Below are positions 25,477 to 29,676 of a stretch of 64,000 bases of DNA, piece after piece. The notes under the pieces were generated by a model. It was given only the letters and a program-made list of their open reading frames with translations. It made no database searches and was not told the DNA's origin. Made by a program: the position numbers and the translations under genes. The DNA is taken from assembly GCF_988243305.1 (NCBI RefSeq), contig NZ_OZ547136.1. The stretch is one strand, 5' to 3'. The stretch's first letter is position 1. Every line of letters begins with the position of its first letter.

Positions 25477-26239
25477 GGTGATGCCTTCTGACGATAGATT
25501 AATGTTGTATTCTATTGGTATCTGGAGACCATATGGCAACAGTTACAGTATATTCTCCCCGCTGTAATTCCTATAAAGTGTACCGTTATGATCACAGCAC
25601 CTCAGATCATGAGCGTTTCCAGTGCTAATCCTGCAAACGTGTATTTCAACTGAATTACATCTACGAAACCCGAAAACCAGGCATTAAAGAGCAAATTGTT
25701 GAAATGGTTCATAACGGAGCCGGGGGTCGCGATAGCTCCAGAACGCTGAAGGTGGATATCAACACCGTCATTCTCACTTTAAAAAACGCTCACCACGTAA
25801 AGTAACCATATCTCCAGCCGCCAGTGTCGATGTGGCACTTATCTGTGAACTTGATGAACAATGGAGTTTTGTCGAAAACAAAGCTCGTCAGCAGTGGCAC
25901 TGGTACGCGTATAAGACCAAAGCTGACGGTGTGCTGGCTTACACTTTTGGTCCTCGCACTGATGAAACATGCCGTGAGTTGCCGGAATTCCTGAAGCCAT
26001 TCTCCGCAGGCATGATAACCAGAGACAACCGGAGCAGTTATACCAGAGAAATGCCACAGGATAAGCATCTTGTCGGCAAGATATTTACCCGGCGCATTGA
26101 GCGCAACAATCTGACACTTCGTACTCACATCAAACGACCTGCCCGGAAAACGATTTGCTTTTTACGCTCCCTGGAAATTCACGAAAAGCCATTGGTTCAT
26201 TTATCGAAAACACATGTACTACTGACAGGAGTCATTACC
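25477..26239 (+). mobile_element. IS1-family element, divergent and degenerate
   Basis: IS1-like terminal inverted repeats (ggtgatgcc ... ggagtcattacc); InsA-like and InsB-like reading frames (ICELDEQW ... RIERNNL) broken by stop codons. Confidence 0.6.
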
Positions 26240-26435
26240 AGGGCCTCTTTTGCTGTTTTTTTGCCATGAATGATAATGAGAATCGACAGCGATAAGGGAA
26301 AAGTAAAATAACACTAATGCTGTCGTTTTCTATCATATTGATTTTTAATTATTTATTGTCTTTTTTCTCAACCCATTTTTTTACGCAGACAAATTTACCC
26401 GGGGAATACAAACTGTAACGACAGTTCACCACACT

Positions 26436-26744
26436 ATGGGGGATAAAATGCCAGATCAATCCGGACACTGCAGGACTCCTTCACGCATCTTACGGATGCC
26501 TGAACTGAGCCAATTGTTAGGTATATCTCGTTCGACAATTTACGAAAAAATGAATCCGTTATCGAAATACTACGATGCAACCTTCCCCAGGCCGGTACGT
26601 CTTGGTAGTGGTTCTGTGGGCTGGCGTTCATCAGCTATTGACGAATGGCTTACTTTACATACTGTACCTGCCAGATCAGCAGTCAAAGGTGTTAATGACG
26701 AAGTGAGACATACGCTTTCTTCAGATATGACCATGAGCAGATAA
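26436..26744 (+). CDS. AlpA-family phage/island transcriptional regulator
   Basis: MPELSQLLGISRSTIYEKMNP HTH typical of AlpA-like proteins; true start may be internal. Confidence 0.7.
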   Translation: MGDKMPDQSGHCRTPSRILRMPELSQLLGISRSTIYEKMNPLSKYYDATFPRPVRLGSGSVGWRSSAIDEWLTLHTVPARSAVKGVNDEVRHTLSSDMTMSR

Positions 26745-26852
26745 GTTTTTGTCATCACGTGATCACCTCAGGAGGAAAAAGAAGCATAAGAACAATTTAG
26801 CCAGAAGTTTAATTGATAAACAAAATTTCCAGCATTCATTGTTGAAAGAGCA

Positions 26853-26906
26853 GCTATTGTCGCTATTGTCGCTATTGTCGCTATTGTCGCTATTGTCGCT
26901 ATTGTA
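26853..26906. repeat. Tandem 9-bp repeat array (gctattgtc, six units, last degenerate)
   Basis: Directly visible; a related degenerate copy lies at ~27351–27394. Confidence 0.85.
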
Positions 26907-26937
26907 GCGGTAATTGCTGCTATAACCGAAACGTATT

Positions 26938-27204
26938 ATGAAAAAGGAAGCATTTATGCCTTACATCAAACCGGATATGCCGTATTCAGTATATGCATGA
27001 CCATCAATGATAGGGAAGGCAATAATTAAAGCTCAATACAATAAACAAGTACCTCTGACTCTGGTTGCAATGTCAGTATTAACAGCGATGTCAATTGCCT
27101 GTCAGAATCAGGTTGACGTATGCAGTCCCGGAAATTTACGTGGGGCCGTTAATATTTACACTATGGTTCTGGAGAAAGGGAAAAGACCGGGGGAAAGGTA
27201 TTAG
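26938..27204 (+). pseudogene. Degenerate partial duplicate of the YfjI-like gene N-terminus
   Basis: MKKEAFMPYIKP ... then ORF 27007..27204 (AIIKAQYNKQVPLTLVAMSVLTAMSIACQNQVDVCSPGNL) parallels residues 1–70 of the downstream gene, with a frame break. Confidence 0.55.
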
Positions 27205-27404
27205 TGAAATAATTTCCGGAGGTATTAAGAATGAGAAATATGAATGATATTTCGTGGTGAATAATACAGTCTTCACTGAATTAACCTTATCGGTTTATTA
27301 AACATCAGATCTACAAATGCTCTGTATTTCTCAGAGCATCAGGTCTGAATAGCAGCTATTTTCGCTATTGTAGCGGGATTTGCTGCTATTTTACTAACCC
27401 ATTA

Positions 27405-28856
27405 ATGAAAAGAGAGGCTTTTATGTGCTTACTTGCACCAGAAAATCCTTATCCGATATATGCACTACCACCGCTGGTGAGAAATGCAATAATTGAAACT
27501 CAAAAAAATACACAGGCACCTTTGGCTATGGTGGCAACATCCGCATTAACAGCGATCTCAATTGCCTGTCAGAATCAGATTGACGTGTGCAGACCTGGAA
27601 ATTTACATGGGCCTGTTAATCTTTACTCTCTGATTCTGGCTGATTCCGGTGAAAGGAAAACGACCGTGGATAAAGTGTTTATGAAAGCATTTTATCTCAG
27701 GGATGAAGCCCTGGCGGATGAATACGCGAAACTGGTTGAGAATTACAGTACAGAAAAGGAAATATGGGAGCAAAAACAAAAAGCGCTGGAATCAAAATTT
27801 CATAAAGAGATTCGTGCCGGTAAAGATTACAAGGCAACAGAATCAGAGCTTGAAACGCATCTGAATAAACCTCCTGTTCCGCCGCAGATACGTCGAACAA
27901 TTTTTAATGAGACAACGATAGAGGGAATGTTAAAATATTACTCCGATAGCAATCGCTCTTTTGCTCTTGTATCCAGTGAAGGGGGGGTAATTTTTGACAG
28001 CCGGGCCATGAGTAAACTGGGAATTATTAACACTTTGTGGGATGGAGGTTCTCTTTTCATCGACAGGAAATCATCTCCCGGAATTAATTTGAAGGAGCCA
28101 AGACTGACGATATCGGTGATGATTCAGCCTGATGTTTACCACAAAGGTTTTTGTACGCGAAAAAAAGAAATTGTGAAAACGTCAGGACATCATGCAAGGT
28201 TTTTGATGTGTCAACCAACATCAACGCAGGGGACAAGGATAATAACCGGAGATAATTATTCATCACAGTATCAGGATTTGTTTGAAGAGAGGATCAATGA
28301 GCTTATTGATGAAAGTCTGGCGATGAGTGGTGAACGACGTTGCCTTCACTTTTCTCCTCAGGCTGCCAGAATCTGGACGGATTATTACAATGATGTGGAA
28401 TCGAAGCTGGGGGGATTGGGGCCTTTAAGACATTGCCGGGAATATGCTGCTAAAAATGCAGAGTATATGGCAAGACTGGCAGGACTTATTTACCATTCGA
28501 GCGGTGAAGAGGGGGAGATTTCCCCTTACACTGCAGAAATGGCGAGAGAATTAGCAATATGGTACGGTAATGAGTATGTGCGGTTGTCTAATCCGTTAAC
28601 TTTTGACAACTCTGCCCTGACCGTACCTGTGCGACTCATTCCAGAGGAGCTTGAACTTTTCAACTGGATAAAAAGCTATTGTATTGAGAAGGGGATCCTC
28701 TGTATGAAAAAAAATGACATTTTACAGCGTGGTCCGAACCGTTTCCGGAAAAAGGATAAAATCAACTGGTTACTGGATTTACTGTATGAACAAAACAGAG
28801 TTGTACCGGTTATTGAGGGAAAAACGTTGTGTGTCGCACCTAACTTTGACCTCTGA
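27405..28856 (+). CDS. YfjI-like island protein (DUF3987-like)
   Basis: 483-aa ORF matching the YfjI family of CP4-57-type elements by recalled similarity and position after alpA. Confidence 0.7.
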   Translation: MKREAFMCLLAPENPYPIYALPPLVRNAIIETQKNTQAPLAMVATSALTAISIACQNQIDVCRPGNLHGPVNLYSLILADSGERKTTVDKVFMKAFYLRDEALADEYAKLVENYSTEKEIWEQKQKALESKFHKEIRAGKDYKATESELETHLNKPPVPPQIRRTIFNETTIEGMLKYYSDSNRSFALVSSEGGVIFDSRAMSKLGIINTLWDGGSLFIDRKSSPGINLKEPRLTISVMIQPDVYHKGFCTRKKEIVKTSGHHARFLMCQPTSTQGTRIITGDNYSSQYQDLFEERINELIDESLAMSGERRCLHFSPQAARIWTDYYNDVESKLGGLGPLRHCREYAAKNAEYMARLAGLIYHSSGEEGEISPYTAEMARELAIWYGNEYVRLSNPLTFDNSALTVPVRLIPEELELFNWIKSYCIEKGILCMKKNDILQRGPNRFRKKDKINWLLDLLYEQNRVVPVIEGKTLCVAPNFDL

Positions 28857-29676
28857 ACGACTTAATCGTTGAGTACATATAGTCTCCTCTGCTACTTGCG
28901 GAGGAGACTAATGTCTTTACCATGTCAGCGTTGTATTAGAAAACTCTGGTACAGGTCAGTCAGTAAATATAACTGGTGTAACCACTATTTACTATTGGAT
29001 AGAGTGTTGCTCAGGATATTGTCGGCTTTAGTCTGAGGTGAGGTGGGGCCTTCATTGTTTTCGTGTTCAATAAATAATTTAGGTTAATTAGTATTATTAG
29101 TGGAAGTTATGTGATCTGTTATGTTGTCTTGTACGCACTTAACACTGGTTACGTACCGGAACACTATTAGAGTATGTTATGGCTCTGTTACAGTTTATAG
29201 GTATGAAAAAATATAATCTTTCCTGTATGAAATAATATTCTTATGGTGTGTGGGGTATGGTCTGTATACCATCATTTTTATGGTGAAGTTAAATATCTGT
29301 AGAGGCCTTAAGCTGGGTCGCTGTTTTTACTTAATGGTACAGAAGTATTAATAGCGGTGTTGCCTGTGGCTACCCGATACTGGCTTTTGTGAATGTCAGA
29401 TTACTTCCTGTAAGTGATTGAATGGTACTTCCTTAAACTCAATTCTATGAGGTGTGTTTTTACCATTGTAATTCGTACTGGTCCTCAGTTTAAGTGAGTC
29501 TTACTGTACTCTGAAATATTACCTCTTTGGAGTAATGAGGTAATACGAAACAGTTTTATCAGGTTGTCTGTGCTGCTGGTTACCTCGTTTATTAATGCCG
29601 CGGTACGGCGTTTCTGTACTCTCAGTATTTATGTAATTCCACCTTCCTGTAACTTTTATAAAGTAAGGACTATAAA

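Follow-up and report, generated by a model that had tools for sequence, protein, structure and literature searches.

What are the short tandem and inverted repeats in front of yfjI for, and which protein reads them? The question is posed by a 64,000-nucleotide stretch of contig NZ_OZ547136.1 (assembly GCF_988243305.1), called the window throughout, in which a tandem array of 9-bp units, a broken copy of the start of yfjI and a second repeat block lie in succession before the intact gene. Segment 26400–28900, which holds them, is 99.9% identical to E. coli strain 3059 and is matched in 1399 of 5426 complete E. coli genomes; the window is E. coli chromosome, and the island within it adjoins dgcT. 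An earlier note, made from the letters alone, had likened the pattern to iteron-type protein-binding sites duplicated together with the gene start, and this likeness is supported by the recurrence of the sites across the family, by a model-free detector that is positive almost only beside the gene and by covariation of the repeat word with residue 435 of YfjI. By analogy, the sites are best read as belonging to a known kind, iteron origins served by the self-loading helicase-initiators of satellites and islands. We propose with moderate confidence that the 9-bp units form an origin of the island bound by YfjI, and we are more confident of the narrower claim that they are a YfjI-binding site. 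The features that carry the argument are the following.

26853–26906, plus strand: six-unit 9-bp iteron array, five copies of GCTATTGTC followed by one GCTATTGTA; expanded left arm of palindrome 1 and a variable-number tandem repeat, VNTR (Tandem Repeats Finder, regular expression).
26884–26922, plus strand: iteron palindrome 1 (copy 1), in which a TTG loop joins the two final direct units to two inverted units (TAGCGGTAATTGCTGC); 38.3 bits, E 3e-7, with covariance model R1.
26938–27204, plus strand: decayed duplicate of the first ~270 nt of yfjI; 78% nucleotide identity to 27405–27680, in-frame stop, frameshift.
27350–27388, plus strand: iteron palindrome 2 (copy 2), a compact 2+2 inverted repeat, TAGCAGCTATTTTCGCTA-TTG-TAGCGGGATTTGCTGCTA; R1 48.7 bits, E 4e-10.
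27423–28856, plus strand: intact yfjI, a DUF3987 protein modelled as a minichromosome maintenance (MCM)-like AAA+ helicase with a C-terminal winged helix, and the proposed iteron reader and initiator (Pfam, AlphaFold).
28635–28853, plus strand: C-terminal winged-helix domain of YfjI, residues 405–477, including the predicted specificity residue Q435 (domain model).

The comparison set comprised 80 loci across the Proteobacteria whose YfjI homologues are 28–36% identical, and the covariance model R1 was built from 19 sites. R1 detected the element in 54 of these 80 distant loci. Among the 21 model-negative loci with inspectable flanks, 16 carried the same architecture in the same place in other words (TGCGACA, TGTGACA, GCTA variants), and the remaining five (L020, L033, L037, L068 and L084) had no such architecture. 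Further words appeared within the model-positive loci, namely TGCTGTT (L013, L017, L025, L076) and ATGCGATT (L034, L088). The usual form consists of three to five abutting direct units of TGCTAYTnn, a 20–35-nt spacer, and three to five inverted units; the word differs by lineage (GCTAYTnn, or GCGACAnn elsewhere), with the 9-bp units abutting and mirrored. Compact 2+2 palindromes recur in Burkholderia, Ralstonia and related loci, and perfect tandem runs also occur elsewhere, for example three copies of ACAGTAGCA in L050. The CP4-57 island of K-12, whose YfjI is 41% identical, has GCTATTTCCGC-CATTAATA-GCGGAATAGC before yfjI, with the same GCTATT...AATAGC palindrome, and a Morganella locus (L046) was seen to be CP4-57-like during comparison with the experimentally validated PIME repA-oriV.

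A model-free detector, which asks for a hexamer repeated at 9 nt together with its reverse complement repeated likewise, was positive in 25 of 1088 tiles, nearly all of them at the gene flank. R1 returned nothing significant from 68 kb of unrelated CFT073 DNA, and only two sites, palindromes 1 and 2, from the 64-kb window. The two arms also change together at their variable positions: both sides changed in 9 of 18 pairs, with 42 changed cells against 18 ± 3.6 in shuffles. Counts of the GCTATT/AATAGC hexamers upstream of the gene in the distant loci were seemingly negative because the element there lies mostly downstream of the gene.

Where the element lies bears directly on what it does. Among 45 strong R1 matches, 28 fall within 300 nt past the helicase stop codon, mostly at 40–66 nt, and three sit 24 nt before the start, upstream as in E. 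coli. The upstream placement is what one would expect if the palindromes were transcription-only operators of YfjI or another protein, acting on yfjI in E. coli and on the downstream gene elsewhere, with no origin involved: in E. coli, K-12 and Halomonas-type loci, the site stands 24–62 nt before the yfjI start, between alpA and yfjI, at the expected autoregulatory place. The element also contains no AT-rich unwinding region, and the Rep proteins of iteron plasmids use inverted repeats as operators. In most taxa, however, the element follows the helicase stop by 40–66 nt whatever gene comes next, which is the position of the validated origins of Staphylococcus aureus pathogenicity islands (SaPIs) and phage-inducible chromosomal islands (PICIs), and the protein is by family and model a helicase and no dedicated repressor. 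Four loci moreover hold two or three separate mirrored arrays: L049 (4486–4549, 6528–6600), L022 (4474–4536, 4691–4753), L023 (4292–4365, 4520–4582, 5635–5698) and L019 (4471–4542, 4592–4621). Multiple clusters, as in the duplicated E. coli layout, therefore recur in the family, and we regard a purely transcriptional role as unlikely.

Which protein would bind such sites? YfjI matches the Pfam family DUF3987 (PF13148, E 6e-84, residues 31–390), its Walker A motif (SGERKT) is intact, and the family-invariant columns R78, K79, E186, Q235, R259, R272, E326, R351 and R442 are all present. In the AlphaFold model (predicted local distance difference test, pLDDT, 88), a core whose best PDB fold matches are MCM helicases, at a weak template-modelling score (TM) of ~0.4, is joined by a disordered linker (392–404) to the C-terminal winged helix. 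Modelled alone, this domain reaches a pLDDT of 92.8, and Foldseek relates it to MecI/BlaI, MarR-like and MCM C-terminal winged helices at TM 0.65–0.71. A PDB sequence search with the YfjI profile found nothing, and in NCBIfam no family was matched by YfjI, YfjJ, AlpA or the 65-aa fragment described below. Biochemical work has established one DUF3987 protein as a helicase, the partner of a mobile-element primase (PMC11724360).

The strongest pointer to YfjI is covariation. When loci with GCTAYT units are compared with those with GCGACA units, the most discriminating alignment columns cluster at residues 427–436. Residue 435 is Q in 50 of the 54 loci with T at core position 3 (GC-T-A or GCTGTT). 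In all 17 loci whose core is GC-G-A or GT-G-A, Q is absent there, 15 having R, one K and one H (Fisher p 6e-13, with classes read from the arrays, partly by eye). Since the iteron class changes at least eight times on the helicase-core tree, this association is not the effect of a single clade.

Two other proteins of the island come into question as readers, and the earlier note had looked to AlpA-like or YfjJ-like proteins for DNA binding. The first of these is encoded just before the module.

26436–26744, plus strand: AlpA-like helix-turn-helix gene preceding the module (open reading frame, ORF; RefSeq helix-turn-helix / AlpA family regulator).

The sites could accordingly be read by AlpA, or could serve as a nick or transfer site (an origin of transfer, oriT, or a rolling-circle origin) for YfjJ, a protein of the inovirus Gp2 type. 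The alpA gene lies immediately upstream, and its homologues precede yfjI homologues in at least 33 of the 80 distant loci; AlpA-family proteins are excision factors or activators in satellites and related islands, and YfjJ is annotated as an inovirus-type Gp2 protein. AlpA types nevertheless differ among islands with the same iterons, identity over 56 aa between the window AlpA and that of E. coli islands sharing them being only 25%, and homology between islands with different alpA genes begins about 10 nt left of the palindrome, not within alpA. YfjJ homologues occur in only 6 of the 80 loci, at variable positions, whereas the iteron word tracks a residue of YfjI. We therefore consider both AlpA and YfjJ very improbable readers, and on the covariation YfjI is the best candidate.

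The local history of the sites explains their arrangement in the window. A tandem duplication with a period of 466–467 bp has made 26889–27204 a 73–78% identical copy of 27355–27680 (26970–27172 against 27437–27639, 78%, spacing 467; 26889–26955 against 27355–27421, 73%, spacing 466). The decayed copy of the yfjI 5' end that the earlier note placed at 26938–27204 is borne out: its translation runs into a TGA in frame at codon 21, and the Walker A motif has been lost through a 10-nt deletion (ADSGERKT becoming EKGKRPGERY*). RefSeq annotates the residues from 27007, inside this dead copy, as a 65-aa 'DUF3987 domain-containing protein'. The second degenerate block noted at 27351–27394 likewise proves to be the homologue of the array end, and it is an imperfect inverted repeat (27348–27390; arms 27348–27367 and 27371–27390, 20 nt, 80% complementary, 3-nt loop). 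Palindrome 2 gives a DNA hairpin z of -6.2, and 35 nt separate its end from the yfjI start codon. The simple order of alpA stop, 22 nt, palindrome and yfjI is seen in an E. coli island that lacks the duplication (L005), and the duplicated layout is kept in three lineages that diverge by 13–20% across the copy-1 region. Relative to one of these relatives (L002), the yfjI body is 99.7% identical, the upstream duplicate 87% and the spacer 90% (26889–27349 compared with L002 and L004), a contrast that points to recombination with a breakpoint near palindrome 2.

An inverted repeat between two genes may also act as RNA, here as a hairpin in the alpA-yfjI transcript forming an intrinsic terminator or attenuator to be overridden by an antiterminator of the AlpA type. 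A consensus scan does give a terminator-like site at 27370–27386 followed by TATTTTAC, the strand folds well, and in the E. coli copies most mismatches are of the G-T kind when read on the sense strand. Its T tract, however, is weak and not conserved (AACTTTAC in L005, TATAACC in copy 1), the long forms have a 20–35-nt unpaired spacer and no T tract, and outside E. coli the mismatches have no strand bias (10 G-T against 12 A-C). Arm sequence is kept beside proteins 30–40% identical, which is atypical of a plain hairpin, and no Rfam family is matched, the weak matches to miRNA precursors lying far below threshold and merely reflecting a hairpin. With no conserved U tract, no strand-specific covariation outside E. 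coli and no Rfam family, we rejected the intrinsic terminator or attenuator, and an RNA role of this kind has very little probability.

The span (26853–26906) and number of units of the six-unit array are as the earlier note gave them, but only five units are perfect copies of GCTATTGTC, the last reading GCTATTGTA. Tandem Repeats Finder reports 26853–26905 with a period of 9, 5.9 copies, 100% matches and the consensus GCTATTGTC, and the pattern GCTAYTNNNGCTA occurs six times in the 64-kb window, always within the array, against 0.11 expected, a count reached in 0 of 100 shuffles. Alleles of two, three, four, five and six units were read directly in E. coli islands that are otherwise >99% identical. 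A systematic sample of 60 of 1031 records held 46 alleles of two units, eight of four, five of three and one partial match (counts are span lengths; BLAST identity bands were dropped, since joined pieces hid gaps). The five-unit allele was found in at least nine records and the six-unit allele in only one other, the record matching the window, and the order of frequency in E. coli is 2 > 4 > 3 > 5 > 6. Whole-unit differences in copy number among close genomes make the array a VNTR, whereas palindrome 2 showed no 9-nt length variants among 43 sampled records. The direct units are alike at 8 of 9 bases in the upstream copy and at 7 of 9 in the downstream copy; replication slippage on the more self-similar pair accounts for the array. 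According to the earlier note, repeat numbers varying at random among related islands, with no fixed spacing to the gene, would speak against binding sites. The number in the upstream copy does vary from two to six, but in the E. coli loci read the 2+2 palindrome stands at one fixed distance from the intact gene start. What is conserved is therefore the 2+2 palindrome, and the six-unit array represents a rare allele grown by slippage from a two-unit site.

This raises the question of whether the array and palindrome 1 matter at all, or are non-functional leftovers, a neutral VNTR in a decaying duplicate, with function confined to copy 2 if present anywhere. The range of two to six units among near-identical islands, the near-uniqueness of the six-unit allele and the dead gene fragment next to it all suit that idea. 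Expansion also abolishes hairpin symmetry: the two-unit allele, GCAGCTATTGTCGCTA-TTG-TAGCGGTAATTGCTGC, is a near-perfect palindrome with a DNA hairpin z of -4.07, whereas in the six-unit allele the symmetry is lost and z is -1.2. Nor is the conservation of palindrome 1 significantly above that of its surroundings. Against this stand the persistence of the duplicate with its palindrome in the three diverged lineages, the copy-1 palindromes of L004 and L002, which R1 scores equal to or above copy 2, and the normality of three- to five-unit arrays and of several arrays per locus in the family. As an account of the whole upstream element, we find this improbable; neutral junk suits the extra units but not conservation across the family. 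The leftover explanation concerns those units only, is compatible with a YfjI-bound origin, and the four extra units of this strain are most simply taken as neutral. In its short perfect repeat and whole-unit differences among close strains, the array resembles the E. coli VNTR loci used in multilocus VNTR analysis (MLVA), from which it differs in that its unit is a conserved, predicted protein-binding word and not anonymous DNA. The 18-mer of the repeat had no match in a literature search, so the array is apparently not an established typing locus; it is a possible strain marker and otherwise an ordinary VNTR.

Between palindrome 2 and the dead yfjI copy lie further small features, the first of which is as follows.

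27317–27339, no strand assigned: small palindrome with 8-bp arms, ATGCTCTG-N7-CAGAGCAT, in the inter-copy spacer (sequence).

The earlier note had seen this palindrome, though it is one base shorter than given there. It is perfect in the window; in L002 it has one compensatory change (C-G to T-A) and one mismatch, in L004 6 of 8 pairs are kept, and no T tract follows it at 27317–27339. The spacer also contains a nine-codon mini-ORF, MRNMNDISW* (27231–27260), with a strong Shine-Dalgarno sequence GGAGG (27218–27222) 8 nt upstream. It is conserved, its only changes across three diverged lineages being synonymous or in the stop codon (AAT to AAC, TGA to TAA), and could be a leader peptide or a remnant. 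A derivation of spacer 27205–27349 from a decayed alpA copy was unsupported, with a local alignment score of 18 against 16.8 ± 2.1 for shuffles.

How closely does the layout follow that of known origins? The Reps of SaPIs are self-loading helicases whose C-terminal winged helix binds 5–6-nt iterons placed right after rep, and each side of the origin bears two or more iterons, those of the two sides pointing in opposite directions, with one hexamer loaded per side (PMC9371898). E. coli PICI origins share this layout, and a cloned rep-ori cassette was shown to replicate (PMC6092414, which also compares P4 with PICIs). Relative to SaPI1, SaPI5, SaPIbov1 and EcCICFT073, the YfjI islands have in common an AAA+ helicase with a C-terminal winged helix (predicted for YfjI, for which a hexamer would be expected by analogy), mirrored iterons beside the helicase ORF, and the int-alpA-rep order. 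At least two opposed iterons per side are present at both sites in the window (2+2 at 27350–27388, 6+2 at 26853–26922), and relatives have 3–5 + 3–5. The position past the stop codon is shared by the relatives, in the 28 of 45 strong matches given above. The window itself differs in that its iterons lie 35 nt 5' of yfjI and not 3', with nothing similar after the gene; the YfjI-side iteron sets enclose no AT-rich region, their units abut at a strict 9-bp period, and the E. coli form is compact and duplicated. The validated EcCICFT073 origin (L095, 14000–14240) immediately follows the primase-helicase gene, and its direct units of CTGTCTACC and inverted units of GGTAGAYA surround AT-rich DNA. 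Its Pri-Rep belongs to D5_N/DUF5906/Pox_D5 (superfamily 3), whereas YfjI is DUF3987; the iteron words are unrelated, and BLASTP of YfjI against Pri-Rep found no homology (E 0.13).

Looser parallels are found in three other groups. Satellite P4, an element of the int / AlpA-like (Vis) kind, encodes the alpha protein, whose C-terminal winged helix binds short direct and inverted iterons in two clusters; the iteron word is TGTTCACC, and the clusters, ori and crr, lie kilobases apart and are both required. The YfjI islands share with it the short mirrored iterons, the two clusters, a (predicted) winged-helix helicase-initiator and the int/AlpA-type setting, and differ in helicase family, in iteron word, and in having gained the second cluster by the 466-bp duplication. 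Site II of SV40 large T antigen and the papillomavirus E1 sites are palindromes of penta- or hexanucleotides on which double hexamers assemble head to head, the mechanism that we propose for the mirrored arms; this is an analogy with no homology claimed, these being superfamily 3 helicases of eukaryotic viruses, which bind their origins through a domain other than a winged helix. In iteron plasmids (pSC101, R6K, P1, F, RK2), Rep sites lie beside rep and an inverted repeat at the rep promoter autoregulates it, which matches the E. coli placement before yfjI. Plasmid iterons, however, are 17–22-bp direct repeats read by a non-helicase WH1-WH2 Rep and accompanied by DnaA boxes and an AT-rich unwinding element, unlike the 9-bp mirrored units, single-winged-helix helicase and non-AT-rich centre found here (DnaA boxes were not searched for).

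The mechanism that we propose for YfjI follows from the match to the established SaPI Rep layout. The iterons would be binding sites for the C-terminal winged helix of the helicase encoded immediately downstream, and the functional element would be the mirrored iteron set: in E. coli the compact 2+2 form, GCAGCTATTnTCGCTA-TTG-TAGCGGnAnTnGCTGC, 35 nt before yfjI, and in most other Proteobacteria 3–5 + 3–5 units with a 20–35-nt spacer, 40–66 nt past the gene. By analogy with SaPI/PICI Rep, P4 alpha, SV40 T antigen and papillomavirus E1, YfjI protomers would be recruited to the two arms in opposite orientation, and two head-to-head rings would assemble and open the island origin when YfjI becomes available through AlpA-driven transcription. 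Since in E. coli the site stands between alpA and the yfjI start, bound YfjI would probably also repress its own expression there. What the analysis shows is the anatomy of the sites, their conservation and place relative to the gene, the VNTR behaviour, the modelled fold and the covariation with residue 435; YfjI binding, origin or operator function, autoregulation and the neutrality of the extra units are inferred, binding from the covariation. In the history of this strain, an old tandem duplication of ~466 bp would have copied the palindrome and the first ~270 nt of yfjI; the gene fragment then decayed, and the near-identical direct units of the upstream palindrome (8/9) then grew by slippage to six.

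Several observations weigh against a YfjI-bound origin. The centre of the element is not AT-rich: its central 20 nt have a GC content of 64%, compared with 60.5% in the loci, in the long forms they fall below the locus GC in only 12 of 31, and the E. coli loop is just 3 nt. Four loci of the T class are exceptions to Q435, residue 435 lies at the end of helix 2, outside the canonical recognition helix, and global winged-helix identity tracks the iteron class weakly, so that the iteron-protein link rests on few columns; classes were read partly by eye because tetramer counts proved too noisy for automated calling where loci are GC-rich. Palindrome 1 does not stand out clearly in conservation from the decayed DNA that surrounds it, and because the region is a mosaic no excess conservation is demonstrable. 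The island is degraded, holding pseudogenes of IS1 and of a primase. When plasmids were searched, YfjI turned up only in large ones or in chromosomes filed wrongly, and in no minimal replicon. Our confidence in the origin is held at its moderate level because of the non-AT-rich centre, the strict 9-bp abutting, and an E. coli site that lies before the gene and is duplicated. More tentatively, as a possibility that we rank below the origin itself, these sites may represent an origin type common to YfjI/DUF3987 helicases and not previously described, with mirrored abutting 9-bp iterons, a non-AT-rich centre, recognition by the helicase's own winged helix and a Q-versus-R switch between GCTA and GCGA. 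A literature search on yfjI and the repeat 18-mer returned no earlier description of the sites, and papers on DUF3987 helicases and on PICMIs (phage-inducible chromosomal minimalist islands) describe no origin.

The wider island runs from an integrase through a 605-aa ORF, the IS1 pseudogene (25832–26269, just upstream of alpA) and the AlpA-like regulator to the repeats, and continues with the 65-aa 'DUF3987 domain' fragment, YfjI, YfjJ, the primase pseudogene and a 1656-aa kinase/helicase ORF. A hairpin at 28880–28910, 24 nt past the yfjI stop, has 13-nt arms (TAGTCTCCTCTGC / GCGGAGGAGACTA) that are 92% complementary; it is not iteron-like and is probably the yfjI terminator. Between yfjI and yfjJ lie 820 bp with no annotated gene (28857–29676). 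The equivalent region after the palindrome in Morganella L046 (4560–4720) is extremely AT-rich, with direct repeats of ATATTAATATATAGTA, and could be an unwinding region. Segment 30448–35873 carries defence-like cargo, a frameshifted fragment of an archaeo-eukaryotic primase of the 'TOTE conflict system' type, together with the 1656-aa ORF, which combines kinase-like with helicase regions and bears the annotation AAA domain protein, and then a 478-aa hypothetical protein. The ORFs neighbouring the element in L088 had no PHROG match.

YfjI has remained a 'y-gene' of unknown function both in the CP4-57 island of E. coli K-12 and in the island studied here. Tying it to a defined DNA site yields a testable hypothesis, namely that it is a self-loading replicative helicase, and the Q/R rule at residue 435 predicts that a single point mutation would swap its specificity. 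Mirrored 9-bp arrays are a possible signature for the origins of DUF3987 islands and satellites, and many of these elements encode defence systems. PICIs and PICMIs are induced by AlpA, and the primase markers that define the latter include DUF3987; on this hypothesis, induction by AlpA may lead the YfjI islands to amplify, as happens with PICI and PICMI satellites. If YfjI/DUF3987 helicases do share an origin type of their own, the iteron number, through the VNTR and the duplicated palindrome, would tune island copy number or incompatibility, and the CP4-57-type islands present in about a quarter of E. coli genomes, K-12 included, would be latent replicons.

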